Part shown: in pieces, positions 7,072 through 57,498 of the stretch | How positions within the stretch are numbered: the stretch's first letter is position 1 | How the letters are laid out: the number at the start of each line of letters is the position of its first letter | NCBI GenBank assembly: GCA_028710985.1 | Contig: JAQTTB010000001.1 | Span: forward strand, 19,280 to 83,279 | Reading direction: 5' to 3' | DNA: 64,000 nt | Source: Patescibacteria group bacterium | GTDB lineage: Bacteria; Patescibacteriota; Patescibacteriia; JAHJFT01 | Program-made: the position numbers and the translations under genes | The notes under the pieces: generated by a model | What the model was told of the DNA's origin: nothing | The model's database searches: none | What the model saw: the letters and a program-made list of their open reading frames with translations, nothing else

Positions 7072-7108
7072 AAAAGTACGAGTCGTCTATATGCAACCCG
7101 TACTTTTT

Positions 7109-10712: not shown

Positions 10713-11037
10713 CTTCACTCTTCTCTCCCACCGCGATTTCGCGGGTAATTTTTGTGATATTTTTTTCGATTGACTGAATTTTAATGAATATTCTGAACGC
10801 GAGATAAAATAACAGCACGATTGAAAGATATGTCGCAAGATCCGCGCCGCGCTCGACTCCGAACCAGGCCGCCGCCACGTCGGTTTTCTTTGGGATTACC
10901 GCCGCCGCGCTGACCGCAATCCAAAACAAAAGCCAAACCGCGAGCCATCCGGCGGTAATGTCTTTTGATCGGTACTTGCGGAACGCTCTCCAGGCCGCAA
11001 TCGCCGCAAATAATATAATAACCGCTTGAATTATCAC
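10693..11037 (-). CDS. Small DUF2304-like membrane protein that partners GT2 enzymes
   Basis: It is 114 aa with 3 to 4 TM helices and a charged C-terminal tail. It lies between two GT2 genes and overlaps both, which matches the DUF2304 family context. Confidence 0.55.
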   Translation of the reverse strand: MIIQAVIILFAAIAAWRAFRKYRSKDITAGWLAVWLLFWIAVSAAAVIPKKTDVAAAWFGVERGADLATYLSIVLLFYLAFRIFIKIQSIEKNITKITREIAVGEKSEDAKKHE

Positions 11038-11705: not shown

Positions 11706-11731
11706 AAAACTACTTTCGCATCAATATTATC

Positions 11732-11961
11732 GTCATTCCCGCGAAGGCGGGAATCCAGAAACAGTATACCTTGCGGATTCGATTTATAAACTGTCACACA
11801 AATCACTCCAAAGCGGATTGCAGTCTTCAATGAATTTAATCTTTTAGACCCTTTCCACTTATTGGAGGATGCAAATATAGAACTGCCGATAATCGGACAT
11901 AGCATAAATAAGTAGCCCCGAGATTAATTGGTTGTGGATTCCCGCCTTCGCGGGAATGACA
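11732..11961. repeat. REP/BIME-like element: two inverted copies of a 26-bp hairpin motif flanking about 180 bp
   Basis: GTCATTCCCGCGAAGGCGGGAATCCA at 11732-11757 and its inverted copy GGATTCCCGCCTTCGCGGGAATGAC at 11937-11961 flank the region. The same motif recurs at 43.24 kb and 57.17-57.25 kb. Confidence 0.7.
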
Positions 11962-43021: not shown

Positions 43022-43050
43022 GCATCAATAAAATCCCTCTCTGCCTCTCC

Positions 43051-43264
43051 CTTCCTGCCTGCCGGCAGGCAGGTTGCATACTTTTGGTTACAAAAGTATG
43101 TCCTGCTGAAAGCAAACAAGAGTGGTGCTAGAAAAGATAATTATTGCCCAGACAGGTGGCAGGCAAGAACTTAAAAATCCCAATATTAAAACAACTTGTA
43201 CGATAATATATAATAGGATTCCCCCGGTACATTGAACCTGGATTCCCGCCTTCGCGGGAATGAC
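43051..43264. repeat. Copy A of a 214-bp structured three-hairpin REP/BIME-like repeat
   Basis: It contains the palindromes CCTGCCTGCCGGCAGGCAGG, ATACTTTTGGTTACAAAAGTAT and GGATTCCCGCCTTCGCGGGAATGAC. It is about 90% identical to 56984-57198, judged by eye alignment. Confidence 0.8.
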
Positions 43265-43370
43265 AAAAGTAAGGCAGGAATGACAAATGGCGCTAAGATT
43301 TTTATAGCAAGATTCCCGCCGGAGCCTGCCCTCATGCAAATGGGGGGGGTGGCTAAAAATATCGTCAACC

Positions 43371-43405
43371 AAAAAACCACTCCGACGTTACGTCGAAGTG
43401 GTTTT
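43371..43405. terminator. Bidirectional rho-independent terminator
   Basis: AAAAAACCACTCCGACGTTACGTCGAAGTGGTTTT has a 13-bp stem with one mismatch and an A-run and T-run on either side. It is immediately 3' of the 43417 minus-strand gene. Confidence 0.7.
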
Positions 43406-43416
43406 GAATTTTAATC

Positions 43417-45660
43417 TTATTGCCCCGCCTTCGCTTCTTTCTCGTCAATCATTTTCAGAAACTCATCCGTATCCGCGGATATTGAGGGATCCAACTGTTT
43501 GGCAATATTCGCGTACAACCGCGCGAGCTCATACTCCCCGACTTCAAAATATGCCGCCGCAATACCGGCATATAACCGCGGATCGTTTTCATCAATATTG
43601 TCAATCGCAAAATTATAAAGTTCAATCACCCTCGGCATATTGCCGGCTTTAGCATTAAGTTCAACCATCGCCGCCACTTCCGGAAGATTTACCGGATGTC
43701 CGCCGATTGATGCCGATTTTTCAAATGCCTCAAGTGCTTTATCTTCCCACTCGGCCTCATAGTATGCAATACCTAAATTCCACCATGACTCCGTGACATT
43801 GGGATCGAGGTTCACTGTCTCCAGATAATACTGGACAGCCTCATCGGTGCGGCCAAGATTCAAGAGCGCCTTACCGCGCACAAAACGCAACTGCTGACGA
43901 TCGGGAGAATACCTTAGCGCCTCATCAATGTCCGCGAGCGCCTGTTCATGGTGCGTCGGATCAATCTTACCAAGCTCGAGCTGAATCAAGCTCATGAGAT
44001 AATAATTATATATATTCATGGGATGAAGCGGCACAGTTGCCTTTAGCGCATCGTATGATCGCTCAAGATACTCAGCGAGCTCATCGCTTGGCATTTGCAT
44101 TGAGCGGCTAATTTGCGCCATCTCTCGGCTATAGTAAAGAGGAACCAAATCCGGATATTGGTTTGAGATAGCCATGCCTTTTTCAAATGCTGCGGCCGAA
44201 CCTTTATAATCCCCTGCCTGTGACGCAATCACTCCGCTCCGCACCCAGGTGGAAGCAAACGCGGTCCGAAAAGTAAATAAATACAAAACCGCAAACGAAA
44301 AAATTATCAAGACCGCGAGCCACGCTCCGGCAACGGCTGGAGTATTGATAAACAATCTTCCCTCTTTTTTCGGTTCGGTTGTCTCGCTCTGCCACCAGGC
44401 CAGGCAGAAATAAAACATAATCAATGCATTCGGCTGGTCAAAGATAAAAAGATTTTGCACGAAATATCCGATCAGAATTCCAATTGAGCCGCAATAAATA
44501 TGGGTATCGATTTTACCGCCCTTGAAGGCTTTGGTGAGCTGAATGATTATGAGAGCGAATAAGGCGAGATATGCCGCCGTACCGACCACGCCCGTATTAT
44601 TCAGCATATCCATCATCTGGTTATGCGCATGGTCAAACCATGTTTCGTAGAACGAAAACTCCAGTGACTTTGGATTGTAGTATTTATTGAAAGTATAAAA
44701 ATAATTTTCCGGACCCCAACCAAAAACCGGACGCTCCAAGAATCCCTTCCACGCGATTTCCCAAGCAATAAAGCGCGTCGCCGCCGTGCCACCGGTTAAC
44801 GAAATATCTCGGAAGCGATTGAGGCCGGGAACCTGCGCGGTCCAGGCCTGATCTTTAATCAGCCAAAATCCAGCCGACGCAAGGATTATTGCCAAAAATA
44901 TACCCGCGGAAATTATGCGGATCTTTTTATTATTTTTAAGTATTGCGTAAAGCGCGAGATACACGAGCCCGGCGAGAAAAACTCCAACCATTGCGCCGCG
45001 TGTTTCGGCGAAAAGAAAAGCCAAGAACTGTATTGCGAGCATGGCTCCCCACATTGCCTTGGTTGACCACCGCACGGCTTTTTGCAGAAGAACGAGCGTA
45101 ATGAACATAGTGAAAATCAAATACGCAGCCAAGAAAATCGGATTATTCATAAACGCGCCGGTACGAGCGCCGGTTTGCAGCACCAATTCCGGCGCCACGC
45201 GCTGGATAAAAGCGACAAACGACAGCGCCACGCTCACACCCACATTGAAAATTAAAACTTTTTTCCATTCGCGCCAGCCGCGGAAAACCGAAATTGCCAT
45301 AAAATAAAACAGGAGATAATGGAGAAGCGGCCAAAAACCGGTCATACGTTCGTGATAACTCCAGAAGCTGCGATTCGAATCAACGCCAAAAATCACGGCT
45401 AAAAAAAGTCCGATGAAATACGCCGCAAGCCCGTACATAATAAGCGACCGCCGCGGCCGGTATTCCGGCTTGCGCGCGAGAAGATATATATACCACGGCA
45501 ACGCGCTCATGAGCACGATCATAAGATAGACCGTCTTGCCAAAAATATACGGGTAAACCGTCCATGGCAAAAAAATAAACGGCATCACGAGAGCCGCATA
45601 TACGCTAATTTTTACCCACCAATATGCGATGCGGTCCATTGTTTCAAGATTGTTATTCAT
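43417..45660 (-). CDS. O-antigen ligase family (Wzy_C) membrane protein with C-terminal TPR repeats
   Basis: About 12 TM helices. RFIAWEIAWKGFLERPVFGWGPENYF matches the Wzy_C ligase loop motif (R..W....P.GxGxxxF). The C-terminal roughly 300 aa carry TPR-like repeats (AEWEDKALEAFEK..., RTDEAVQYYLETVNLDPN...). Confidence 0.75.
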   Translation of the reverse strand: MNNNLETMDRIAYWWVKISVYAALVMPFIFLPWTVYPYIFGKTVYLMIVLMSALPWYIYLLARKPEYRPRRSLIMYGLAAYFIGLFLAVIFGVDSNRSFWSYHERMTGFWPLLHYLLFYFMAISVFRGWREWKKVLIFNVGVSVALSFVAFIQRVAPELVLQTGARTGAFMNNPIFLAAYLIFTMFITLVLLQKAVRWSTKAMWGAMLAIQFLAFLFAETRGAMVGVFLAGLVYLALYAILKNNKKIRIISAGIFLAIILASAGFWLIKDQAWTAQVPGLNRFRDISLTGGTAATRFIAWEIAWKGFLERPVFGWGPENYFYTFNKYYNPKSLEFSFYETWFDHAHNQMMDMLNNTGVVGTAAYLALFALIIIQLTKAFKGGKIDTHIYCGSIGILIGYFVQNLFIFDQPNALIMFYFCLAWWQSETTEPKKEGRLFINTPAVAGAWLAVLIIFSFAVLYLFTFRTAFASTWVRSGVIASQAGDYKGSAAAFEKGMAISNQYPDLVPLYYSREMAQISRSMQMPSDELAEYLERSYDALKATVPLHPMNIYNYYLMSLIQLELGKIDPTHHEQALADIDEALRYSPDRQQLRFVRGKALLNLGRTDEAVQYYLETVNLDPNVTESWWNLGIAYYEAEWEDKALEAFEKSASIGGHPVNLPEVAAMVELNAKAGNMPRVIELYNFAIDNIDENDPRLYAGIAAAYFEVGEYELARLYANIAKQLDPSISADTDEFLKMIDEKEAKAGQ

Positions 45661-45661
45661 A

Positions 45662-47620
45662 TTATTTTATTTCAACGGCATTAATATTGTCAAAAACGCC
45701 ACTGATAAAGCGCAGATTAATTTTATTATTATAAATTTCCGCGATGGCGATTCTCACCTCTCCGACAATATAGTCATAAAATGCTTTCAAGTCAAACTGA
45801 TTCGCCTGCGTCGCCCAGTTTGCGCTGCGGAGGAACGCGCCATTCCGATCGAATGATTTTATATATATATTTCCGTCTGTTTTATAAGTAACCAGTATCT
45901 CTTCTTCTTCGCCCGTATCCAAATTTTGCGTCGCAACGAATATTGGCCCCGTGATTTTCTCTGCCGCTTGAAAATTTGAAACCAAGACGCCACTCTTCCT
46001 AAATATCTTAATATGCAAAACACCGGCATCAATAAATCCCACGATTATTTCATCCGTGTCATCGGCATCAATATCTCCAGCCGTGACCGTAACGCCGCCG
46101 CGAAAACCAGAAGTATACGCCATAAAATTACCCTGAATTTCCCCTCTTTCATTAAACACTAGTATATGCGGACCGCCGCCCGGACCCGGCGCGGTGATAA
46201 TTTCATCGTTCACCGTCCGGCTGTCCACATTTCCGACGGCGATATTCACGCCACCGCGGAAAAGCGAATTATACGCAAAAAATTGTCCGTACAATTTCCC
46301 TGTCTCGCTAAAAATACGCACCTGCGGACCGCCGCCCGGACCCGCGCCGACCACAATTTCTTTTTGACCGTCATTATTTACGTCGCCGCTCTGAGCCGTG
46401 AACCCCTTTTTGAAACTATCCGGAAACACCGCGAAGCTATCTTTGACTTCCCCGCCGCTCCCAAGCTCACGGACAACCGGCGTAAAACCAAGCGGCGCAC
46501 CGATTACAAGCGATGAACCGCTCTTTGCCGCTTCAAGCGCCAACTCAAGCGCAGCGCGCGCATCCACGCGCGTTCCCAAGCCTCCGGCAAAATCCGGATT
46601 GATCCCGTCAATTATCACGCCGCTTTTTACCAAAATTTCATTGATTTCACGAGCCGAGAGCCCGGGCGCGATTGATTTCACGAGTGCGGACACGCCGGAA
46701 ACAATCGGCGCCGCAAACGAAGTGCCCGACCAATCGTCATCATAGAATGTATCAAAATCCGCAATTGCCGAGTTATAAACACGCGCGCTCCATATATCCA
46801 TGCCCGGTGCCGAAACATCAACGCAGGCTTTGCCAAAATTTGAAAATTTCGCTTTTTGATCCAACGTGTCGGTTGCCGCGACTCCAAGTACGTATATTTC
46901 ATTCTCATATTGATCAATGCACACCGGAAATTCATCGTACATATCCAAGTTCGAGCCGCCCGATTCGTCCGGCGTATTGCCGGCCGCCGCCACTACTACT
47001 ACTCCCGCTTCCCAGGCGCGGCGCACCGCAGTTGACATATCCTCGCTAAAATTAAAACCTACAAAACTCAAATTAATCACATCCGCACCATTTCGAATGG
47101 CGTAATAAATCGCTTTTGCCACATTGTCCGAGAATCCGTTACCCGTGGCATCGAGCACCTGAAGCGGCATTATCTTGCTCTCCCAGGTGATTCCGGCCAT
47201 GCCGTTCCGATTATTCCCTTCGGCTGCGATGATGCTCGCCACCGCCGTGCCATGGCTAATTCCCTCTTCCGCATATCCGTTGGAAAAATTCGGCAATATA
47301 TTTCCGTTATTATCCGAGAAATTCCATCCATTCACATCATCAATATAATCATTCTTATCATCATCGATTCCGTTTGCCGGAATTTCATCTTCATTGATCC
47401 AAGCATTGCCATCCAATTCCGGATGCGAAATATCCACGGCCGTATCAATCACTGCGACAATCACCTTCGGACTGCCGGTCGAAATATCCCAGGCGCGTTC
47501 GGCATCAATCTGACGCAAATACCACTGACGCGAAAAATCCGTATCGTTTGGGGTGAAAGCCTGCGCGCCTTGAACCGCAACGAATACAAAAATTATTGTG
47601 CAGAATATAAACTTTTTCAC
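45662..47620 (-). CDS. S8-family (subtilisin-like) serine peptidase with C-terminal FG-GAP-like repeats
   Basis: A signal peptide is present. The catalytic-triad contexts are VAVIDTAVDISHPEL (Asp), HGTAVASIIAA (His) and GTSFAAPIVSGVSALV (Ser). The C-terminus repeats GDxNxDGxxEIVVGAGPGGGPQVRIF. Confidence 0.85.
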   Translation of the reverse strand: MKKFIFCTIIFVFVAVQGAQAFTPNDTDFSRQWYLRQIDAERAWDISTGSPKVIVAVIDTAVDISHPELDGNAWINEDEIPANGIDDDKNDYIDDVNGWNFSDNNGNILPNFSNGYAEEGISHGTAVASIIAAEGNNRNGMAGITWESKIMPLQVLDATGNGFSDNVAKAIYYAIRNGADVINLSFVGFNFSEDMSTAVRRAWEAGVVVVAAAGNTPDESGGSNLDMYDEFPVCIDQYENEIYVLGVAATDTLDQKAKFSNFGKACVDVSAPGMDIWSARVYNSAIADFDTFYDDDWSGTSFAAPIVSGVSALVKSIAPGLSAREINEILVKSGVIIDGINPDFAGGLGTRVDARAALELALEAAKSGSSLVIGAPLGFTPVVRELGSGGEVKDSFAVFPDSFKKGFTAQSGDVNNDGQKEIVVGAGPGGGPQVRIFSETGKLYGQFFAYNSLFRGGVNIAVGNVDSRTVNDEIITAPGPGGGPHILVFNERGEIQGNFMAYTSGFRGGVTVTAGDIDADDTDEIIVGFIDAGVLHIKIFRKSGVLVSNFQAAEKITGPIFVATQNLDTGEEEEILVTYKTDGNIYIKSFDRNGAFLRSANWATQANQFDLKAFYDYIVGEVRIAIAEIYNNKINLRFISGVFDNINAVEIK

Positions 47621-47701
47621 AGGCTAAAAATTCATAAGTTATACGGATATGATACCATTTTTGCGCAAAAAATACACACTCATGCCATCCATCCCCAACC
47701 T

Positions 47702-47739
47702 AAATCCCGCCCCCGGGCGTCCCCAGGGGCGGGATTTTT
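47702..47739. terminator. GC-rich hairpin downstream of the giant-protein gene
   Basis: AAATCCCGCCCCCGGGCGTCCCCAGGGGCGGGATTTTT. The stem CCCGCCCC/GGGGCGGG is flanked by an A-run and a T-run. Confidence 0.55.
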
Positions 47740-47777
47740 GAGTTACTGAATATTGCCGATTACTCGGCCAGTCAAGA

Positions 47778-50700
47778 CTAGAAGGTCAATACCACGTTTT
47801 CGGTGAGATCCTTGACGAGATACTCGTCAGTCCAATCACCGGTTGACAACGTATCTAATTGAGCGTTGTGCGGTATTGCCGCCTTGTCTGACCAGACAAG
47901 GTAAGCAGCAACTTCGCCACCCACTACACCGGTTGCATCCAAGTTCGGACCACGTACGGTGCCGACCGCGGCTGCATTCAGGTGATAGGTGTAGATGGTT
48001 GAGCTGCCAGTCTTAATAGTTACGTTAAGCGACTCGCTGGAGCCTGCACCGCCAACCGTACCCTTGAGGGTAAAGATGTGGCCGGAGCCAGAAATGCTCT
48101 GCTCTGTGCCGCTCGTGTAACTAATAAAGATTGTGCCCGAGGCATCGGTTGCGCCTTCAACAGTATTGCCGAGGTTATCAGTGATGGTAACCAAATCGGA
48201 AATATCTGTACCGTCCTGGAACCACTTCAAGGTATCAACCGTGAACGCACCGCTCTTAGTGAATTCGAATGTGAGTTTCGCGACACCCGCATCGCCTGCA
48301 CTGTCTGCGGTAACCTTGGTCTTGTAGAGTTCAATCGTACCGTTGGCCAGGCTCGAGCTAGCTAACGCTTGCTTGGCAAAAGTAAGCTTGGTCTTGCGGA
48401 TAACCATTGGGTTGCCCGCGAGGACCGCCGAGGCCGCCGCGTACACGCGCTCGCCGGACATGGCGCCCGTGCCCTTCACATTGTAACTATTGGTATAGTT
48501 CGCATCCCACTCGCCGGTCGTAACATTGTATTCAACCGCGAGTTTCGGGTTGTTGCCCGAGGTTGCGCCTGCGTCAATCGCGTTCAGCTTGCCAACCACC
48601 TGGAAGGTCACACTGCCGTCAGCCGGCACGGTGATCGGGGTGGAAAGCGTGATGTCGGTCGCCGTCGCCGAACCCGGGAACACATCCGTGCCCGAGGAGA
48701 CGATTACGCCGTCCTTCTGAATCGCGAGGTACTTGAAGTCACTATTTGCGCCGCCGCTATAGCGTTGCAGGCGGATCTTGTCAACGGAGATATTTTCGTA
48801 CTGTGAAGTAATCTTGGCTTGGGCAAAGGTTGTCCAAGCATCCTTACCGGCAATGACAATGTCGGTTGACGGATTTGATTCCGCCGCGATTGTCAATGTA
48901 CCGGAATTCTTCACAGTCTGGAAGATTGTCGGACCGTTGTTGATCGGATTGCTCCAAGTCACGTCGCCGTCAGTCGCAGTAACTGAATTGGCATCTGCGT
49001 CTTCGGCCGAAATATCGGTTTCGAGAGCAATACCGACCCAGAATGTGTCATCCGTACCGCCGGAAGTCGCCACTGAATCAAGTATTGCCTTGACAACCAA
49101 TGTCTTGGTTTCACCCGCCGGAATGCTATAGCTGAGACCGTCAAATGTGGCGGTACCCGCCGTTGCATCCGGGCTCTCGGCCGTGCCGAGCTGAGTCGTG
49201 CCATCCCACAGCGTAAGCTGGGTAATGACATCGTCCAGTTGAGCCGCGGTATAACCCGCACCGTTCACATTGCCCTGACCAGTGACTTTAACGCTCGTCA
49301 CTTTGATTGCGCTCTGTGAACCAGCTGTGAACACAAAACCAGATGAAGCAACATCTGATGTCTTCTTGACATAGGTGTCACTCACCGGAGTCGCGGCCAG
49401 CTGAACTGTCAGACTCGATGTCTTGACCGTCATGGTGTTGCCGGTAATAACCGCATTCGGCACGATTTGGGTTACAGCGAGATATTCGCCTGTGGCATTG
49501 TTCTTCACATAATCGGCAGCAAAGGCATTCAACTTGGCCACATATTGGCGATCGCTGTTGAACCAGGCGTTGTTTGCCACATCGGCCTTGAGGGCCAAAT
49601 TCTTGGTTGTGCCCGCGTTCACATAAAATGAATCGCTAACCACCCAAGTGCAAGTAGTTGCATCCTCACCACAGGCGGGACTTCCGCTTGAAAGTTGAGT
49701 CGGACCGGCGACAACTTCGCCGGAATCGGTATCAACTAATTTGATGTCAGTGAACAGATCTGTGGTGGATGCGTCAATGTAGTCATCACCATTGATACCT
49801 GCCAGTGTGAAGCTGATCTTGCGGACCTCGAGAGTGTTCTCGGCCGCAGTCATGCCAAACTGGAAGAAGATCTGATCCTGGCCGGCCTTTGGCATAGTGC
49901 CAGTCGCCGGACCATTGTAAGCGATCGTCAATTGACCGCCCTCGGTATTCGTGGTTACTGAATCGCCGCTATCAAAATCATCAATGTTCACTGCCGCGCC
50001 CCAGCCATAGGTATTATCTGTGGCATCGACATCGGTAGTGTACTCAAGATAGGTAATGATAGAGCGGCCGCCCTTGCCCACGACATCGGCCTTGACATAA
50101 AGAGTCTTGGTTGTGCCGTTGGAAATGAGATAAGGCGTGGCGAGGATAAAGTTTATCTTATCGCCGACAATTGTCGCTGTTTCGGCCACTAATTCTGTAC
50201 CAACATACAGCTTCAGGTTGGTAACGTCGCTGTTCACGACCGTACCGGCCTGAGCGATGCTGATTTGATTAAGCTTAATATCCGCGCTTGCGGCAGTAAG
50301 CTTAAATGAAGAAATCGTGGCTGCAAGTGATCCAACTGTTACGTTGGCCGGATCTGAACCTTCATTCACCGTCAGAGTGGCGGCATCCTGTGCACCAACC
50401 GTGAAGGTGTTGCCGCGTATCGGGAAACTGCCCGAAACCGTGGCGGTTGTGCCAACCTTACTCGTCGCAACGAGCTCTAGGGCATGTTCATCCGCAGCTA
50501 TTGCGGTTGAACTCAAATCGCCGCGGACCGTGAGATACTTGGTCGTGCCGGCGGTAATCGTCAAGTTCAGGTTGTTGAATTGAGCCTCGTTTGAGCTGGT
50601 ATTGATACTGCGACCGCTCGTCAGTCTTGTTGAACCCTCATAGAGGTAGACGTTCGTGAAGTCGCTCGCTGTACCAACGCCAAGGCGATGGAATGTCAGG

Positions 50701-51557
50701 GTATTAAGAATGACATTGCCGTCCGAGCTCGCGGTCACAGCGACCTTAATAAGCTGCACGCTTGACGAACCCTGGGCGACAGTTGCGCCCGCCGGGGTGT
50801 CAGAGGCCAAGGCCACGGCAAGACCGGTGCCTGTGCCGGAAACGCCGGCTACAAGATCCGTAATGCCCGCTTCACCGCCGGTAACCGCGGTTCCGTCCGC
50901 ATAAGTTACATCGGCCGCGACTGGGCTAATTACGAAACGCCATTGGAACATGTTGGCATCAAATGCCGCCTCGTTCGCAATTGCGCGCTTCTGACCATCC
51001 TGAATGTAGTAGACGGATGCACCAGAAGCATACTTAATCAAGCATCCATTCGGATGCACATAAGTGCTGATTGAGGTGCCGATTGAATAGTTGGTGAAGA
51101 ATGAATCCGGAACGTCAACTACCCAGCTGGCCCAATTTGTTCCCCAGAGTTTCTGGGCAACGGCCTCGGTCTCAACCCAATGCAAAACACCGCCGGTCGT
51201 CACGGCATAAACCTTGGGATCGGTGGTAATTTTGATTAGGAATGTACCTGGGCGGATTGTGATATTTCCGCCGATAGAGACTGCCGCGAGTTCCGCGTCA
51301 GTGATCTCTTTCAGGGTTGAGAAATCGGGGTACCATGAATAATAGGTGTTCTCGTTCGGGAAAACGTATCTCTTACCATCTGCTGCGTAATAATACACCG
51401 CCGGTTGGCTGGCCTTAATAAGGTCGCCTGCGGACAAGGTCGCTGCTTCCGCTGCCAAAGGCATTATGAAAGCCGCAAAACCGATTGACCACGCCATGGT
51501 GGTGATAACTACGCCAACGGTAAGGATCCTCTTTGAAATGCGTAGAACTTCAGTCAT
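47778..51557 (-). CDS. Giant (1259 aa) secreted Thr/Ser/Gly/Ala-rich beta-rich surface protein; putative S-layer, adhesin-like and possible glycoprotein
   Basis: It has an N-terminal signal/TM (ILTVGVVITTMAWSIGFAAFIMPLAAEA) and a roughly 200-aa N-terminal domain with repeated aromatic blocks (YYYAADGKRYVFPNENTYYSW / YYIQDGQKRAIANEAAF). Then come about 1000 aa of Ig-like low-complexity T/S/G/V repeats. GC content is higher than in the surrounding genes. Confidence 0.6.
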   Translation of the reverse strand: MTEVLRISKRILTVGVVITTMAWSIGFAAFIMPLAAEAATLSAGDLIKASQPAVYYYAADGKRYVFPNENTYYSWYPDFSTLKEITDAELAAVSIGGNITIRPGTFLIKITTDPKVYAVTTGGVLHWVETEAVAQKLWGTNWASWVVDVPDSFFTNYSIGTSISTYVHPNGCLIKYASGASVYYIQDGQKRAIANEAAFDANMFQWRFVISPVAADVTYADGTAVTGGEAGITDLVAGVSGTGTGLAVALASDTPAGATVAQGSSSVQLIKVAVTASSDGNVILNTLTFHRLGVGTASDFTNVYLYEGSTRLTSGRSINTSSNEAQFNNLNLTITAGTTKYLTVRGDLSSTAIAADEHALELVATSKVGTTATVSGSFPIRGNTFTVGAQDAATLTVNEGSDPANVTVGSLAATISSFKLTAASADIKLNQISIAQAGTVVNSDVTNLKLYVGTELVAETATIVGDKINFILATPYLISNGTTKTLYVKADVVGKGGRSIITYLEYTTDVDATDNTYGWGAAVNIDDFDSGDSVTTNTEGGQLTIAYNGPATGTMPKAGQDQIFFQFGMTAAENTLEVRKISFTLAGINGDDYIDASTTDLFTDIKLVDTDSGEVVAGPTQLSSGSPACGEDATTCTWVVSDSFYVNAGTTKNLALKADVANNAWFNSDRQYVAKLNAFAADYVKNNATGEYLAVTQIVPNAVITGNTMTVKTSSLTVQLAATPVSDTYVKKTSDVASSGFVFTAGSQSAIKVTSVKVTGQGNVNGAGYTAAQLDDVITQLTLWDGTTQLGTAESPDATAGTATFDGLSYSIPAGETKTLVVKAILDSVATSGGTDDTFWVGIALETDISAEDADANSVTATDGDVTWSNPINNGPTIFQTVKNSGTLTIAAESNPSTDIVIAGKDAWTTFAQAKITSQYENISVDKIRLQRYSGGANSDFKYLAIQKDGVIVSSGTDVFPGSATATDITLSTPITVPADGSVTFQVVGKLNAIDAGATSGNNPKLAVEYNVTTGEWDANYTNSYNVKGTGAMSGERVYAAASAVLAGNPMVIRKTKLTFAKQALASSSLANGTIELYKTKVTADSAGDAGVAKLTFEFTKSGAFTVDTLKWFQDGTDISDLVTITDNLGNTVEGATDASGTIFISYTSGTEQSISGSGHIFTLKGTVGGAGSSESLNVTIKTGSSTIYTYHLNAAAVGTVRGPNLDATGVVGGEVAAYLVWSDKAAIPHNAQLDTLSTGDWTDEYLVKDLTENVVLTF

Positions 51558-51782
51558 AAATAATTTATATCCTTTTGAATTTAATTCTTATCACGCAAGC
51601 GGCCATTGGCCCCGACCTTTTAGCCTGCGCGTTAATTAACTCTGGTACAAGTTCCGACGCCCCAACATAAAGTTGGCGGTCGGAATCCCGACTTCCGCCT
51701 GCGGCGGAATGTCGGGACATCAGCCCATACCCCGGAAACGGCTTCCATAAAAACCGCCTTCGGGGTATTTCCGATGATTAAT

Positions 51783-52991
51783 TTAATTCGTTACCGCTTT
51801 TGTCGTGGTTGCGGCTCCAGCCACTGCTGGCGTAGATGAAGTCTGAATTACGGGAATGATTGGGTCAGTCGATGAAACCCCAACCGGTTCGGTTATAATC
51901 GGCGTCTCGCTTGCTTCACTCTGATTTTCGGCTCCAACCGCCGAAGCCAGGGTATTCACTTCTTTTACCGCCGCAATCGCCCCGACTAAATCATTATTTT
52001 CCAAAAGTTCCCGTGCCTCCACAACTTTTTCCGCCAGTTGATCGGCAGTCGCGGTTGATGCTCCCGTTACCCCGATAACTTCACCCGTGCCGCTCGCCGC
52101 ACCAGTAATCACCTCTCCGGTCGAAGACGCGGCCTCCGAACCCACCGGGGTAGAAATTACCTCCGCGGTACCCGAAGCGCTCGTTACTCCAACCAACGCT
52201 GCCGCGGCTTCGGCTCTTTCCAGCTTGCTCGTAATTTTTTCAATTACTTCTTCCTCGGTGATTCCTTCGGCCTGACCCTGGGCGTGTTTCTCTACGATGA
52301 CTTCAACGGCCTTAACTGCCGTTACCTCAACAACCGCTTTCGCTTCTTGGACATCATTCTTATTGACATCGGAAAGCTTGTCCATGGTTTCCTGCAATTT
52401 ATTTTCAAACTCTTCAGATTTTTCATCAACGATTTTCGCCACCTCAACCGCCTTCTTTGAAGAACTTTTTTGTTTAATTTCTTCCAGATCATCCTGAACT
52501 GTTTTCATGCCTTTTTTAAAATCCGCCATGGACTTGGTTAGCTTTTCTTCCTTCCTTATATCGGGTTTCTCAATCAACTTAGTCGCTTCTTCCAGCCGCC
52601 GTCCGGCAAAATCAATGCGCAGTTTTGTTTTAACTTCCCGGGCCGGCGAAAGGGTTATTTGCGCGCCTTCGGAAAATAATTTTACGCCGTAAAGCGCATC
52701 ACCCGGCAAGCTGCCAAAAGACGCACTCACTGTCGCGGTCCAGCTGCCAAATACCAGAAATACGATAACCATGGCTGCGACAACCGGACGAAACGCCTTA
52801 GACCAGCCGGTGCTTACATCCACTGCCAATGAAAAATTTTCAAGCAGACTGCCGGTTTTCTCCGCCGCCGGCGCGTCCTGTCTTGCGTGAGCAAGCATGC
52901 TTTCGCGCGTTGACAATACCCAAGCCTCACGCGCTTTGCCGCCCGCTTTCGTCTTACCGAGATTATTCAATTGTTCTACCAATTTATCCAT
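51783..52991 (-). CDS. Membrane-anchored putative anti-sigma factor / regulator
   Basis: It lies immediately downstream of the ECF sigma gene. It has a single TM helix (VVAAMVIVFLVFGSWTATV), then a segment GDALYGVKLFSE and a long coiled-coil, Ala/Glu/Lys-rich region. The anti-sigma role is inferred from position only. Confidence 0.4.
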   Translation of the reverse strand: MDKLVEQLNNLGKTKAGGKAREAWVLSTRESMLAHARQDAPAAEKTGSLLENFSLAVDVSTGWSKAFRPVVAAMVIVFLVFGSWTATVSASFGSLPGDALYGVKLFSEGAQITLSPAREVKTKLRIDFAGRRLEEATKLIEKPDIRKEEKLTKSMADFKKGMKTVQDDLEEIKQKSSSKKAVEVAKIVDEKSEEFENKLQETMDKLSDVNKNDVQEAKAVVEVTAVKAVEVIVEKHAQGQAEGITEEEVIEKITSKLERAEAAAALVGVTSASGTAEVISTPVGSEAASSTGEVITGAASGTGEVIGVTGASTATADQLAEKVVEARELLENNDLVGAIAAVKEVNTLASAVGAENQSEASETPIITEPVGVSSTDPIIPVIQTSSTPAVAGAATTTKAVTN

Positions 52992-53000
52992 TTATCGGGT

Positions 53001-53546
53001 TTATTTATTGTCTTGCTGCTCCATAATTTCACGTAATGCCGCGAGCGAGCGGTGAAGCAGAACCCGCACATTGTTTCCGCTTTTCTGCAAAATACTCGCG
53101 ATTTCGCCAGCTGTCATATTATCCAGATACTTCATCACCACAATCTCGCGATACTCATCCTTTAGTTTATTCAGCGCACGGTAAATCCTCGCCAAGTCAG
53201 ACTGCTTCTCCAGTTCCGCCAGTCCAACGATGTCCACTTCTCCGGCCGTCTCTTCCATGAGCTGAATATCGCTCTTTCTCTGCCGATAATGGTCAATGAC
53301 CAAATTCCGCGCAATTGTGTAGAGTAGGGCTCCCACACTTTTCACCGGCTGGCTGCCTGCAAGATAATCCCAGGCTTTTAAAAAAACCTCTGAACTCAAG
53401 TCTTCAGCTTCTTGTTCCGAGGATACTTTAAAAAAAATAAATCTATATATCTTGGCGCCGTAATCATCATATAACTCTGCAAATGCCCCTGCGTCCTGCT
53501 TCGCCTTGATCTTATAGACCAGTATTTTTTCTTTGAATTTATTCAT
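53001..53546 (-). CDS. RNA polymerase sigma-70 factor, ECF subfamily
   Basis: Region 2 reads FLKAWDYL and region 4 reads EYREIVVMKYLDNMTAGEIASILQKSGNNVRVLLHRS. Length is 181 aa. Confidence 0.85.
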   Translation of the reverse strand: MNKFKEKILVYKIKAKQDAGAFAELYDDYGAKIYRFIFFKVSSEQEAEDLSSEVFLKAWDYLAGSQPVKSVGALLYTIARNLVIDHYRQRKSDIQLMEETAGEVDIVGLAELEKQSDLARIYRALNKLKDEYREIVVMKYLDNMTAGEIASILQKSGNNVRVLLHRSLAALREIMEQQDNK

Positions 53547-53638
53547 CTATATTGACGATAAGATGATACGAATGTTACACAATCCGCCTTCATTTGTAAA
53601 GTCTTTTAGTCTCAAATTCGGTTAAATCACCCGTTTTC

Positions 53639-53667
53639 TTGACAAACTTTCAAGCTGCACATATAAT
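53639..53667 (+). promoter_or_regulatory. Consensus sigma-70-type promoter (TTGACA-17-TATAAT) upstream of the HTH gene
   Basis: ttgacaAACTTTCAAGCTGCACAtataat has both hexamers perfect and the optimal 17-nt spacer. It sits about 35 nt upstream of the 53703 ATG. Confidence 0.55.
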
Positions 53668-53702
53668 AAGTCTAAACTAGCCTAGACTTTTAATATAAGC
53701 CC

Positions 53703-53999
53703 ATGTCTTCATCCATTCGCTTATCCGTATCCGAAGCCGCCCGGCTTTTTGGCATTAGTGAAAAAACCCTGCGCCGCGCCATCATTAATAAGGAAATCAA
53801 CTATATCGTGGTTGCCGGCCGGTACAAGCTAAATTTTGAAAGCCTGGTCAAGTGGTCCCAGCAAAAAACCACGGTGCGCCGCAAATCCGAAAAATACGGC
53901 ATCGACCAATTTGTGGATAAATGGCGCCTCTCCGCCACCCTCTACTCCCCCAACCCACCCGCCACGGAACAAGAGAACAATTCAACAATACAACAATAG
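53703..53999 (+). CDS. Helix-turn-helix (excisionase/MerR-like HTH_17) DNA-binding protein
   Basis: SVSEAARLFGISEKTLRRAIINKEINYIVVAGRYKL is a typical HTH_17 or excisionase-family DNA-binding helix. Confidence 0.6.
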   Translation: MSSSIRLSVSEAARLFGISEKTLRRAIINKEINYIVVAGRYKLNFESLVKWSQQKTTVRRKSEKYGIDQFVDKWRLSATLYSPNPPATEQENNSTIQQ

Positions 54000-54061
54000 A
54001 ACGACCTATAAAAAAACAAGCGTTTTACCTATGCTTGTTTTTTTGTTGTATTGTTGAATTG
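53978..54061. terminator. Nested inverted repeats forming a bidirectional terminator between convergent genes
   Basis: The outer arms CAATTCAACAATACAACAA (53978-53996) and TTGTTGTATTGTTGAATTG (54043-54061) enclose an inner hairpin AAACAAGC-11nt-GCTTGTTT, which is followed by a T-run. Confidence 0.7.
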
Positions 54062-54074
54062 TTGCGTTGTCCGC

Positions 54075-55229
54075 TTACGCCGTTTCCAGCGCGAACTTGC
54101 ATTCCGGCTTCAGATCGAAATAAAGTCCGGAAATGTCGCGGCAGATGTCTTTCCAGTTATATTTTTCATTCACGAAAATCTTCGCGCGCGCGCCCAGCTC
54201 TTTCAGATTTTCGGTTTGCGGCAAATACGTCTCAAGCTTACGGATTAAATCTTCAACATTCTTATTTTCAAAACTGATTCCCGCTTCACTCACGACTTCC
54301 ATATTTTCCGGGATATCGCTCGCGATCACCGGCAAACCCCAGCCCATCGCTTCAAGCAAAGCGATCGGCAAACCTTCGGATTCGGACGGATGAACCAGCG
54401 CGTAAGCGTTGCCAAAAAGCGCATTCAACGGCTCGCCGTTCTGAAAACCGGTAAATACAATAGATTCGTCGCCGGCCGCCATCTCATGAAGTTCTTTCAC
54501 GTAATCATCTGTAAAAGCCGAGTCGCCGACGATCACGAGTTTTTTATTGCCAATTATCTCCGGATTACGGAATTTTAGAGTTTTATAAGCATCAATCAAA
54601 TAATGGGCGCCCTTATGACGCACCAGCCGCGAAACCATAATAATATACTCTTTAGGCTCAAGACCAAACTTTTTAAGATACTCGGTGTCGGCCGGATTCT
54701 GCATCCTAACGCCGTTCGGAATATATTGAGTCATGGAATCATAAGCTTCGGAGCAATACTGATTCAAAGTACGCGAAACCGTAATGGTGCGGTCCGCGAA
54801 ACGGCACGCTGACCATTCGCCAAGGCGAAGCATAGCGCGGGCAATAAATCCCCATTTTTGATGCTTGCGATCAATGCAGTGAAAAGTCACCACCACTTTG
54901 GTGCTGGGTCGCAAAATTTTCGGAAGCCACGAGAGTAGCGCCGGCCCGACGCCGTGAATGTGGATAATCTCAAAACCGCTCCGGCAGGCATGAATAATGC
55001 TCAAGAAAGTATGGCTAATGGCATCAAGATGCTTGGTCTTAAGGCTCGGGGTATAAATAAGATGCACCCCGTTAATCTGTTCCTCGTGGCCCTTTGAGTA
55101 CCACGGGCGACAGTATACAAAAACCTCCAGGCCGAGTTCAGCCAGGCCGCGCGAAAGCTCATCCACGTGGCGTTCAATACCACCGAAGATAGCCGGGATG
55201 CCTTTTTGTCCGATCATTGCTATTCTCAT
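54075..55229 (-). CDS. Glycosyltransferase family 4
   Basis: MRIAMIGQKGIPAIFGGIERHVDELSRGLAELG and LVIVGDSAFTDDYVKEL...VHPSESEGLPIALLEAMGWGLPVIASD are typical of GT4. Confidence 0.82.
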   Translation of the reverse strand: MRIAMIGQKGIPAIFGGIERHVDELSRGLAELGLEVFVYCRPWYSKGHEEQINGVHLIYTPSLKTKHLDAISHTFLSIIHACRSGFEIIHIHGVGPALLSWLPKILRPSTKVVVTFHCIDRKHQKWGFIARAMLRLGEWSACRFADRTITVSRTLNQYCSEAYDSMTQYIPNGVRMQNPADTEYLKKFGLEPKEYIIMVSRLVRHKGAHYLIDAYKTLKFRNPEIIGNKKLVIVGDSAFTDDYVKELHEMAAGDESIVFTGFQNGEPLNALFGNAYALVHPSESEGLPIALLEAMGWGLPVIASDIPENMEVVSEAGISFENKNVEDLIRKLETYLPQTENLKELGARAKIFVNEKYNWKDICRDISGLYFDLKPECKFALETA

Positions 55230-55413
55230 ACCATGATTATTTGTAATGCGATTAATTTGTTATGTAATCTCATTAAATCCTCGTCTTGCCCGCCGAAATC
55301 CCGACCGAACGAAGTGAGCGTCGGGACGAAGGAGGGTCATTGCTATTCTCATATTAAACAACCCACTATACCACATTTTTGCGTTTTTGTCAACTCTCGA
55401 GTCCGGCCAGCTC

Positions 55414-55442
55414 TTGACAAAACCCGCAATTTATGATATACT
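55414..55442 (+). promoter_or_regulatory. Near-consensus sigma-70-type promoter (TTGACA-17-TATACT) upstream of the GC-rich lipoprotein gene
   Basis: ttgacaAAACCCGCAATTTATGAtatact. A GGAGG ribosome-binding site at 55652-55656 lies 8 nt before the ATG at 55665. Confidence 0.5.
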
Positions 55443-55664
55443 TTACCGTTAAAGTCAAAATGGAACAGTCGTATCTTATGACAAATTTTGGCTAAAGCAA
55501 GCCCTTTACAACCTTCTCCCAAGCGTCGAATCTACATTTTCTGGCTATTTTCAGCAATGGTTGGCACACAGTTCAACCCCACCTGCTCGGCTTATATTAT
55601 GCAGATTCATCGCTTAGGAGAAGCAAAACAACCTAAACGCAAAAAACACCGAGGAGGGTGTAAA

Positions 55665-56699
55665 ATGAAGAACTCCAGGATAGTGCTGATTCTCTGCGCC
55701 CTGGTACTGATGGCCTGCGAGACGAGGTACGTGGACGTGGGCGGCGAGCCCGACACCTCCATCGACACCGCGTCCGACAGCGTGGAGCTCTGCTCCGACG
55801 GCCTGGACAACGACATGGACGGCCTGGTCGACTGCAACGACAACGACGGCGACGAGAACTGCCCGCCGTGCGCGGACGCGTCAACCGACGCCGTGGCCGA
55901 CGAGATCGAGGACAGCGCAGAAACCGACGTCCCGCCCGTGGAGCTCTGCTCCGACGGCCTGGACAACGACTTCGACGGACTCGTGGACTGCAACGACGGG
56001 GACGACTGCTGCGATGAAGCAGTGTGCGTTACGAGCGAGCACTGCGCTTCGGAAGACGCTTCAAGCGACTCCGAAGAGGAAGCCGACGCAGTCTCCGACT
56101 CGGGTGCGGATTCGGATCCCGCCGAGGACCCCGTGCCTGACACTGATCCCGACACCGCCTCCGACCCGGATAGCGCAAGCGATCCGGACGCGGTCTCTGA
56201 CCCGGACGTGGTGGACGCCGAAGCCGACGCAGCTGACATCCTCCACTCCGGCCTGGCCACGTTCAAGTGGTGCCGGCCCATGACCATGGCGCGCCCCGAC
56301 CACATTCTCGCGGAATGCTTTGTCTGGGGAAGCCTCTATGAAAGCTGGGATGACTCCTGGGAGCTGGCAACCGGCTCTCCGGACTTCGTCGCACCGGCCG
56401 ACAGCGACTGCATCGAGTTCACCCTGCCAGATCTGGATTACACGCTCCTCGGAATAAGCGTAGAGTGCAACATCACTGCCTATTCCGACTCGGCGTACGG
56501 GCCGTGGGGACGCATCTACGCTCTCGGCGAGTGCACGTGCGGCGGCAGCTGTGTCGTAAAAGGCACGCTTACCGTCCGTTCCGGTCCCGACGCTGATGAC
56601 GCAACCGCCTTGGATCTCACGAGCCTAGTCGTGCAGAATCCGCGATGCGCGTCCCTGAGCGACCAGGCCGGCAACTACGTCCTCTCACCTATTCCATAG
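55665..56699 (+). CDS. Acidic secreted lipoprotein with Cys/Asp-rich calcium-binding-like repeats; strongly GC-rich gene
   Basis: The start is set at [18 protein letters not shown], a signal peptide with lipobox L-M-A-C, preceded by GGAGG. There are two copies of [22 protein letters not shown] plus long D/S/E/A-rich tracts. GC content of about 65% contrasts with about 35-50% elsewhere. Confidence 0.65.
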
Positions 56700-56807
56700 G
56701 GGGTTCGTCTCTCCCCATGGGCAGGATAAGCAAGGTCCCCCCCTACCTTGCCCCTGCCCGCCTTTTTTCAGCGAATCATGCAAATGATTCATTGAAAAAA
56801 GGCAAAA

Positions 56808-56845
56808 ATAAAAAACGCCCCGTGTTTACCGAGGGCGTTTTTTTG
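56808..56845 (+). terminator. Rho-independent terminator of the lipoprotein gene
   Basis: AAAAAACGCCCCGTGTTTACCGAGGGCGTTTTTTT has an 8-bp GC-rich stem and a 7-T run. Confidence 0.75.
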
Positions 56846-56983
56846 TGCATCTTAGTCAGAACATGGGGTTCGGGGGCGCAACTGAGCATGGCGCTAGGAA
56901 GCAGTGAATTGCCTATTTGCCGAGAGCGAACCCGCCTGCCAACGCCTGGCGTAGGCCTGGCGGGCAGGTTTGCGACCCCGAAA

Positions 56984-57400
56984 CTTCCTGCCTGCCGGCA
57001 GGCAGGTTGCATACTTTTGGTTACAAAAGTATGTCCCGCTGAAAGCGAACAAGAGTGATGCTAGAAAACAATAATCAATACCCAGACAAGCGGCAGGCTG
57101 TGGCTAGAAAATCCCAATATTAAAACAACTTGCACGAAAATATTTAATAGGATTCCCCCGGTACATTGAACCTGGATCCCCGCCTTCGCGGGGATGACGA
57201 AGAGAGCACTTTGCCACTTACCGTCATTCCCGCGAAAGCGGGAATCCAGAAACAAAGCCCCTCCAAAATCCCTCTCTGACACGTCGCTCGCGAGCGACGT
57301 GTCTCTGTCTCCCCCTTCCTGCCTGCCGGCAGGCAGGTCAGCCACCCCGAAACTTTTTGGTTACTTTTTGGTTACAAAAAGTAACGCGCCGGAGGCAAGA
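56984..57400. repeat. Copy B of the 214-bp structured repeat (56984-57198), followed by further hairpin modules: a BIME-like array
   Basis: 56984-57198 aligns base-for-base with 43051-43264, with about 20 substitutions and small indels. Downstream modules are an inverted REP (CGTCATTCCCGCGAAAGCGGGAATCCAG), a perfect 13-bp palindrome (GACACGTCGCTCG/CGAGCGACGTGTC), a second CTTCCTGCCTGCCGGCAGGCAGG copy and ACTTTTTGGTTACAAAAAGT. Confidence 0.8.
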
Positions 57401-57459
57401 GACCAGAGGTAAAAAGATGCAAGAAAAAAATGGGAGGCCCAAACGATTGTAGGAGGAAC

Positions 57460-57490
57460 AAAAAGACGTGCCTTTAAGCACGCCTTTTTA
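57460..57490. terminator. Bidirectional rho-independent terminator 3' of the 57499 minus-strand gene
   Basis: AAAAAGACGTGCCTTTAAGCACGCCTTTTT is a short stem-loop flanked by an A-run and a T-run. Confidence 0.6.
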
Positions 57491-57498
57491 TAATATTT

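Follow-up and report, generated by a model that had tools for sequence, protein, structure and literature searches.

Two closely similar repeats, placed in the same orientation, enclose a 13.7-kb block of surface-protein and sigma-factor genes in the 64-kb stretch of Patescibacteria DNA studied here (contig JAQTTB010000001.1; the whole stretch is called the window). The question raised by this locus is whether the repeats carried the block as a mobile island or have a separate history. The original prediction placed copies of about 90% identity at 43051-43264 and 56984-57198. It assigned them to a family resembling repetitive extragenic palindromic (REP) sequences and bacterial interspersed mosaic elements (BIMEs) or miniature inverted-repeat transposable elements (MITEs), proposed that the block had been assembled or mobilised through them, and named structured small RNAs (sRNAs) as an alternative. 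Our reading, with a probability of about 0.62, is that the repeats are a composite intergenic mosaic, similar to BIMEs and to NIMEs (the mosaic elements found between the genes of Neisseria), built around a candidate small RNA or small mobile element, and that the enclosed block is ancestral.

The repeat itself is borne out. The segments 43051-43267 and 56984-57201 (copies A and B) align in direct orientation over 218 columns with 89.45% identity (E 3.5e-79), and the three palindromes named for each copy are all found in both. Hairpin 1 (hp1, CCTGCCTGCCGGCAGGCAGG) occurs at 43054, 56987 and 57318, and with one mismatch at 10400, while shuffled sequences give an expectation of 0. Hairpin 2 (hp2, ACTTTTGGTTACAAAAGT) occurs at 43080 and 57013, and hairpin 3 is of the dRS3 type discussed below. 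Of the 23 differences between A and B, 16 are transitions and 6 are transversions, and one is a 1-nt indel. They begin in column 54, the leading 53 bp with hp1 and hp2 being identical, and the rest differs by about 14%. Both copies occupy spacers between convergent genes. A diversity-generating retroelement was considered and rejected, as the differences are mostly transitions and are not adenine-specific.

Three parts are joined in each copy: the 3′ hairpin domain (hp1, hp2 and tail) of a unit about 185 nt long, a spacer rich in AT, and a hairpin of the dRS3 or REP type. In copy B, hp1 and hp2 form the 3′ tail of this larger unit, and the upstream 120 nt (56865-56983), overlooked in the first reading, are part of it. 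Copy A, located after the stop codon of a glycosyltransferase gene (GT4, 43021) and before the ancestral bidirectional terminator (about 43376-43405), has neither the closing helix nor the G-A loop of the unit. Its left 37 bp resemble a third, partial copy (C, with its preceding module in the region 57302-57397) and the remainder resembles copy B, the junction being the palindrome hp1; segment 43038-43074 is 95% identical to 57302-57338. To judge from these alignments, copy A is a chimera of a C-like left edge and a B-like remainder. The hairpin hp1 is missing from two units and elsewhere stands alone, and the arm of copy B holds an extra GC hairpin; therefore palindromic modules appear to insert into one another.

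The block was compared with the corresponding regions of other contigs, chosen for homologues of the two repeat-adjoining genes; these contigs, like those from the pattern scans below, are designated by L-numbers. At the right junction the relatives have DUF11 homologues of 51-59% identity, and at the left junction Wzy_C-TPR homologues of 63-66% identity. Seven relatives keep the gene order over the junctions, with flanking proteins 51-82% identical. In L039, L041 and L043/L044 the order is GHL15, DUF11 and, convergent to it, the small protein, GT4 (DUF1972), HTH_17, the extracytoplasmic function (ECF) sigma factor, DUF5667 and a 1260-aa protein; L039 begins inside an FG-GAP gene, and the GHL15 domain is not detected there. 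L053 and L054 have the same order as far as the small protein, where the contigs end. In L040, GHL15, DUF11, the convergent small protein and GT4 (DUF1972) are followed by two response-regulator genes, at the place that HTH_17 and the ECF sigma factor take in the window; this contig ends soon afterwards, and the comparison there covers the right-hand part (GT4s, GHL15, DUF11 and GT4/DUF1972). On the left side, L045/L046, L047 and L048 keep the giant protein, S8 protease and Wzy_C-TPR, convergent with GT4, which is followed by (23S_rRNA_IVP) and the epimerase. Orthologues of GT4_L, Wzy_C-TPR, S8, the giant protein, the anti-sigma factor, the ECF sigma factor, HTH_17, GT4/DUF1972, DUF11 and GHL15 are found in the same order in L039, L041, L043, L045, L047 and L048, with identities of 38-82%. 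Both borders of the block sit within a conserved neighbourhood, because the relatives keep the order at the right and the left junction alike.

The junction loci of the relatives contain no hp1, dRS3 hairpin or 214-bp repeat. L040 alone has a diverged unit, and the right spacers of L041 and L043 hold unrelated repeats. Since the spacers of the relatives hold only the bidirectional terminator, the repeats are lineage-specific insertions. Domains of integrases, transposases, RAYT (REP-associated tyrosine transposase)/Y1_Tnp, IS200 and IS110 are absent from the open reading frames (ORFs) of the 64-kb window, all of those of at least 120 aa having been surveyed, and the search for a RAYT or IS200/IS605-type gene that had been suggested gave nothing in the window. 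The GC content is 0.44-0.55 inside the block and 0.47-0.51 outside, with no shift over 43-57 kb except at the gene of an acidic double-disulfide-repeat protein. The gene content is as first described, including the GT4, Wzy_C-TPR, S8 protease, anti-sigma and ECF sigma factor genes; the 1259-aa giant protein has no Pfam match. Assembly or mobilisation through the repeats is refuted, at the level of these relatives, by the order that they keep without the repeats, an outcome named in advance as refuting, and the window offers no recombinase and the block no GC deviation in its favour. The block is an ancestral syntenic gene cluster, not a mobilised island and not part of the repeat element, and the copies are lineage-specific insertions into two terminator spacers. 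The sigma-factor and surface-protein cluster is core syntenic content of Patescibacteria, and the lead of a repeat-bounded island is removed.

The complete structured unit lies at copy B. It folds with an energy of -89.8 kcal/mol (z -3.3). When genomes, one for each species, were scanned for the pattern, four Patescibacteria or Saccharibacteria loci were found, and in these and in copy B hp1 and hp2 are preceded by a long irregular hairpin that starts with (A/U)GGGG-UYY-GGGGG and ends with CCCCC-RRAAC-UUCC. A metagenome scan added units in L007, L011, L022 and L030, and further units were found in L006 (7228-7354) and, diverged, in L040. With homologues in L002, L004, L005, L006 (two), L007, L011, L022, L030 and L040, the total is 11 units. 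About 25 of the 32 metagenome pattern matches, and L003 from the genome scan, were set aside as chance matches or ordinary terminators.

The anatomy of the units is similar. The G-rich closing helix has two G-U pairs and continues into an extension of variable length, which leads to an invariant tandem G-A internal loop, 5′-AAYU-GA-GC...GC-GA-AUU-3′, at varying distance from the base. The apex, of 36-56 nt, is hypervariable, with no sequence conservation. At the 3′ end follow hp1, which is optional, hp2 (CUUUUG-loop-CAAAAG), whose outer pairs covary, and a small GC tail hairpin. Only the closing helix and the G-A loop are common to all 11 units. Each unit folds alike, with z-scores from -2.3 to -4.3, and RNAalifold reports compensatory pairs at 10-121 (CG 4, UA 3, UG 2), 177-194 (CG 5, AU 4) and 178-193 (UA 5, CG 4), which are located in the closing helix and in hp2. 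The duplex energy of the unit's own 5′ and 3′ strands is -26.7 kcal/mol, 6 kcal/mol better than the -20.7 obtained with cross partners. The plus strand gives the more stable fold in 10 of the 11 units. Because palindromic DNA sites covary too, only the G-U asymmetry points specifically to RNA. Conserved structure, compensatory changes and strand asymmetry, the general marks of a structured non-coding RNA, are all found. The sRNA alternative was partly right for copy B, where hp1 and hp2 close the conserved unit.

Rfam 15 has no gathering-level match in the window and nothing relevant at E<=10 in 56700-57500 or at E<=5 in four other units, and ARAGORN finds no tRNA or tmRNA at the unit. Signal recognition particle RNA, 6S RNA, RNase P RNA, tmRNA, tRNA and intron-split tRNA were rejected, with no Rfam or ARAGORN signal and with the conserved motifs absent by inspection. 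A hammerhead or K-turn reading of CUGA...GAA was also rejected; the G-A pairs are arranged as a symmetric tandem, and both a 3-nt bulge and a CUGANGA core are missing. A small ORF starting from CACC-ATG-GGG was discarded, the ATG being missing in 5 of 10 units.

The third hairpin belongs to a known type. In Neisseria, dRS3 is a 20-bp inverted repeat, ATTCCCNNNNNNNNGGGAAT (ATTCCC-N8-GGGAAT), and in NIMEs such repeats flank RS segments of 19-214 bp in intergenic arrays (PMC1797815). Hairpin 3, GGATTCCCGCCTTCGCGGGAATGAC, fits this consensus exactly. The pattern ATTCCCGC-N4-GCGGGAAT occurs in the window at 11735, 11938, 43242, 57176 and 57226, five times against 0.10 expected; four matches are exact and one (57176, ATCCCC..GGGGAT) is a compensated variant with two mismatches. 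The two mismatches between the dRS3 hairpins of A and B are mutually compensatory. The sites at 11735 and 11938 correspond to the inverted hairpin pair predicted at 11732-11961, which is real; the element there occupies the whole spacer from the GT2 start to the epimerase stop. The pair at 57176 and 57226 (57176-57245) encloses 30 bp. Records of Neisseria gonorrhoeae and Photobacterium each match a 37-mer with the hairpin at 40 or more positions; Novosphingobium matches it at 20, and Azospirillum, Legionella and others at several. Multiple copies of nearly identical 30-mers occur in Neisseria, Photobacterium, Azospirillum and Novosphingobium, and many proteobacteria have the palindrome type in multicopy form. 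In other Patescibacteria contigs (L006 at 5813, L008 at 673, L004 at 6170) variants keep the GTCATTCC...GGAATCC flanks and their stems covary. A Logan assembly of this organism is interrupted at 43239, inside the dRS3 hairpin, which is consistent with further repeats elsewhere in the genome, without proving them. The proposed REP/BIME-like or MITE-like family is thus upheld as far as an extragenic, palindromic mosaic with a dRS3 hairpin is concerned. It is not upheld as a MITE for the 214-bp unit as delimited, which lacks terminal inverted repeats. The coordinates are collected in Table 1.

Table 1. Repeat modules, structured unit, terminators, spacers and enclosed genes of the window
Feature	Position	Strand	Basis or remark
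Element dRS3 / 183-bp AT-rich core / dRS3, with 26-bp perfect inverted ends	11727-11961
Module X, CT-rich, AAAATCCCTCTCTGCCTCTCCCTTCC; left edge of copy A	43030-43053	+	common to copy C, absent from copy B
Copy A, 5′-truncated chimera	43051-43264	+	pairwise alignments
Copy A: hp1	43054-43073
Copy A: hp2	43077-43100
Copy A: small tail hairpin, followed by AT-rich spacer	about 43103-43117
Copy A: dRS3-type hairpin GGATTCCCGCCTTCGCGGGAATGAC	43238-43264
Left spacer, Wzy_C/GT4			395 bp in the window; 51, 68 and 184 bp in relatives (plain A-tract/hairpin/T-tract terminator)
Enclosed genes: Wzy_C-TPR, S8, 1259-aa protein, DUF5667 anti-sigma, ECF sigma, HTH_17, GT4/DUF1972, acidic repeat protein	43417-56699
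Bidirectional intrinsic terminator after the acidic lipoprotein gene	56813-56848		equivalent terminator in relatives
Complete structured unit, candidate small RNA or small element	56865-57050	+	fold, homologues, covariation
Unit stem: 5′ strand GGGGUUCGGGGGCGCAACU-GA-GC pairs with GC-GA-...UUUGCGACCCCGAAACUUCC; variable apex
Unit: extra inserted hairpin	56929-56968
Unit 3′ part: hp1	56987-57006
Unit 3′ part: hp2	57010-57033
Unit 3′ part: tail hairpin CGCUGAAAGCG	57037-57047
Copy B: 3′ tail of the ~185-nt unit, 120-bp AT-rich spacer, dRS3-type hairpin	56984-57198	+
Copy B: dRS3-type hairpin GGATCCCCGCCTTCGCGGGGATGAC	57172-57198
Second dRS3-type hairpin GTCATTCCCGCGAAAGCGGGAATCC	57223-57247	-	inverted relative to 57172-57198; 95% identity to 11727-11763
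Module X′ with 23-bp palindromic insert (57279-57301)	57264-57317	+	comparison with 43030-43053
Copy C, partial 'b'-type unit	57318-57397	+	nhmmer E 2.8e-12
Copy C parts: hp1, CCACCCCGAAAC, TTTTTGGTTAC, hp2′ GTTACTTTTTGGTTACAAAAAGTAAC, tail hairpin GCGCCGGAGGC
Terminator of the convergent DUF11 gene, right edge of the repeat-filled spacer	57458-57490
Right spacer, DUF11/small protein			799 bp in the window; 168-190 bp in L039, L053 and L054

If the repeats are such a mosaic, their modules would spread and be reshuffled by recombination or gene conversion at the palindromes, as in NIMEs and BIMEs, and a hairpin-specific recombinase encoded outside the window may be needed. The complete unit would be a plus-strand small RNA or a small mobile element, with a protein-binding part formed by the conserved stem and the tandem G-A loop, and with an apex of about 40 nt on which there is no such constraint. 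The hairpin arrays may reinforce termination and insulation between the convergent genes.

Several points weigh against this reading. The sequence read amounts to about 71 kb of a 744-kb contig, and the copy counts and the negative results for RAYT and IS110 are limited to it. That hp1 and hp2 are almost the same from assembly to assembly is in part a matter of ascertainment, as the search patterns demanded these hairpins. The mechanism that would have produced copy A is read from its chimeric structure alone. No convincing promoter was found for the unit of the window, although the three JAQUPG01 units have a TAAAAT box 6 nt upstream of GGGG. The diverged unit of L040, in the same DUF11/small-protein spacer as that of the window, has an hp2-like hairpin and lacks hp1 and the GGGG start, and three equally related relatives have no unit; the data fit vertical inheritance and repeated insertion of the unit alike.

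This bears on the first alternative, in which the unit, and with it the 214-bp segment, would be a small mobile element of the non-autonomous kind. Copy A would then be a 5′-truncated daughter, as would the partial copy of L030, and such daughters would arise through 3′-anchored copying (reverse transcription is one example) or when an insertion takes place beside terminators. We consider it possible, though unlikely. In its favour are the presence of up to three units per assembly (three in JAQUPG01), with subtypes, and the patchy distribution among equally related genomes; a 1.14-Mb Saccharibacteria chromosome has one unit. Near-identical units are found in Saccharibacteria and other Patescibacteria, yet the L040 unit at the syntenic site is strongly diverged. 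In both the window and L030, a 5′-truncated copy with an intact 3′ end lies upstream of the full unit (by 4.2 kb in L030, with the same geometry), and units stand between two terminators. On the other hand, the ends of the unit show no target-site duplication, the 214-bp segment has no terminal inverted repeats, and copy A, being chimeric, is more than a simple truncation. No recombinase, nuclease, transposase or reverse transcriptase gene was found next to any of the 11 units, nor was a transposase or reverse transcriptase found in the window. The genes beside the units vary from locus to locus, and no constant neighbouring gene or tRNA was seen among the loci examined. A phage origin was rejected, as the search of viral contigs gave no matches.

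In L030 (5370-5700 and 9790-9860), a 763-kb Patescibacteria contig, the unit lies between two near-identical terminators, AAAAGACAGCC(TAAT/AAAA)CGGCTGTTTTTTTG, and this pair may be a duplicated target. The sporadic presence, the subtypes, the truncated copies and this duplicated terminator favour mobility of the unit; a functional RNA is favoured by the conservation of the G-A loop, by the G-U asymmetry and by the small number of copies. The unit may be an sRNA gene kept by vertical descent or a mobile element, and these readings do not exclude each other.

It is more doubtful that both copies are functional, as small-RNA genes or 3′-untranslated-region elements, with A as a shorter paralogue sharing protein-binding 3′ hairpins. 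The identity of the 53 bp of hp1 and hp2 within otherwise diverged copies, the compensatory changes that preserve the dRS3 hairpin, and a sigma-70-like promoter match at 43186-43214 in copy A point in this direction. However, gene conversion would equally account for the identical 53 bp, and copy A lacks precisely the two features that all 11 units share.

That the repeats are att-like or other recombination borders of a 13.7-kb island or composite element is very improbable and, at the level of the relatives compared, already refuted. The direct repeats do bracket the block, which includes an HTH_17 gene (an excisionase-type fold) and the GC-rich (61%) acidic repeat gene, without an orthologue in the relatives by tblastn. 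Against this stand the order conserved over both borders in seven relatives without repeats, the lack of an integrase or transposase and of a compositional break, and the position of the partial copy upstream of the full unit, which is the wrong geometry for insertion at the 3′ end of an RNA gene. Finally, a small protein encoded by the two 94-aa minus-strand ORFs of equal length that overlap the repeats (43088-43372 and 57061-57345) has a negligible chance, since the 1-nt indel puts the two copies in different frames, which also rules out a coding repeat, and the common translation is only the palindrome-derived FVIPAKAGIQ..., the N-terminal parts being unrelated.

The remaining modules of the right spacer extend the second copy as an array of hairpins, as predicted. 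The two dRS3-type hairpins in it are separated by about 24 bp (30 bp between their 20-bp cores), and the perfect 26-bp palindrome (13+13) spans 57278-57303. The 23-bp insert ACACGTCGCTCGCGAGCGACGTG lies between direct TCTCTG repeats (57273-57278 and 57302-57307), where the counterpart in copy A (43037-43050) has a single TCTCTG and no insert. The insert resembles a mini-insertion accompanied by a duplication of 6 bp, though its surroundings are of low complexity. The CT-rich module X precedes copy C, and the arrangement of copy C is that of the second unit in L006. The terminator before the structured unit insulates it from upstream transcription, and the convergent DUF11-type gene (57499-59394) follows to the right of the repeats; its product is identical to PHW53_00325, a protein of a Patescibacteria metagenome-assembled genome on a contig of 744,538 bp. 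Directly 3′ of the stop codon of the small/lipoprotein gene is a hairpin with the C-rich loop CCCCCC(U/A)AC (56719-56760). It is kept at the same position in L039, L040, L041, L043, L053 and L054, though tblastn finds no homologous protein there; a weak match to ylbH was judged spurious.

Other observations concern sequence outside the repeats. At 10400-10432 the hp1-like 20-mer with a TTGCATAC linker lies inside a GT2 ORF (9594-10838, minus strand), where it is read as ...ALPTGRQVQ.... A further palindromic module, CGCCGAAGCTT(Y)AGCG(K)AGGCGGG, is found in Patescibacteria spacers and inside the arm of one unit (L004, 6350-6500; L005, 5600-5630). L004 also has duplicated tRNA-Cys fragments after a tRNA gene, and an array of a repeat of about 119 bp in L025 (Ga0247844_1001613, 6400-7133) was a chance pickup by the search pattern. 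The acidic double-disulfide-repeat gene contains 156-bp tandem repeats (55781-56004), and FG-GAP-type 156-bp repeats are common to the S8 protease gene (46043-46363) and the GHL15 gene (59559-59933). The window as a whole is a cell-surface glycan region, with many GT1, GT2 and GT4 genes, methyltransferases, a flippase and O-antigen-ligase-like genes, in addition to rpsB, tsf and gap. About 25 co-oriented glycan-synthesis genes at 16000-41000 have a GC content of 32-42% against 45-56% in the flanks, and they are a stronger candidate for horizontal acquisition than the 13.7-kb block.

The locus can be compared with several known systems. Guide RNAs such as the IS110 bridge RNA or seekRNA and omega RNA combine a constant scaffold with a variable segment, and dRS3-type hairpins are known targets of IS110-family enzymes in Neisseria. 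The unit is similar in that it has a variable segment of about 40 nt (36-56) set within a helical scaffold that is constant, with dRS3-type hairpins nearby, and different in that it has no adjoining recombinase or nuclease gene and no Rfam match; complementarity of the apex to local sequence is at chance level only (9-12-mers). It is a speculation, to which we give little credence, that the unit is the first member seen of an undescribed Patescibacteria RNA family, with a protein-binding scaffold (closing helix, tandem G-A loop and 3′ hairpins) and a hypervariable segment of about 40 nt, which might serve as a programmable guide for a hairpin-directed recombinase that moves or reshuffles the dRS3-type palindromes nearby. 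If true, this would explain both the mosaics and the truncated copies.

Islands targeted to tRNA or tmRNA genes share with this locus a full RNA-like gene and a direct partial copy of its 3′ end, here with an identical core of 53 bp. They differ in that the partial copy here is upstream of the full unit, no integrase is present and the enclosed genes are syntenic in the relatives; neither the variable presence nor the integrase and deviating composition expected of an integrase-type genomic island is found. MITEs such as the Correia elements are small and non-coding, and the element at 11727-11961, with its inverted ends and short AT-rich core, is similar; however, it has no target-site duplication, and the 214-bp unit has neither this nor terminal inverted repeats.

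REP/BIME systems with their RAYT transposases are known from E. coli and Pseudomonas (Nunvar 2010, Ton-Hoang 2012). The window agrees with them in its short, extragenic, imperfect palindromes between convergent genes, its modular mosaics and the covariation of stems between genomes. Palindromes of 20-40 nt in extragenic position are represented by hp1, hp3 (hairpin 3) and the 26-bp palindrome, one hp1-like copy being inside an ORF. In contrast, no RAYT is present in the window and no conserved 5′ tetranucleotide of the GTAG type was identified; REPs are also not known to include a component that is conserved across distant lineages at 1-3 copies per assembly, as found here.

The closest likeness is to the NIMEs of Neisseria. 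These are present in hundreds of copies per genome together with a cognate IS110-family (Piv/irg) recombinase or Nf prophage, and the window contains no Piv/IS110-type recombinase or filamentous prophage. The host is also different, there are five copies in 64 kb, and the mosaic holds part of an unrelated structured unit. A search of the literature on structured RNAs and REPs of Patescibacteria, and on the palindrome-derived peptides, gave nothing relevant. To our knowledge almost no non-coding RNAs of this group have been characterised. The unit, with 11 examples outside Rfam, is a Patescibacteria-specific candidate for a structured RNA or for a mobile element of small size. The hairpins of the window fit the neisserial consensus, the flanked segments of 30 and 183 bp are within the range of RS segments, and the arrays are intergenic, beside surface and glycan genes, though short, with two dRS3 each. 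An ultra-small genome of the candidate phyla radiation thus contains a palindrome regarded as a speciality of Neisseria, unchanged in its consensus and in its mosaic habit, and this bears on the spread of such hairpins across phyla and on the enzyme that recognises them. The repeat mosaic is of a known type, similar to NIMEs and BIMEs, and a candidate RNA family of Patescibacteria is embedded in it.

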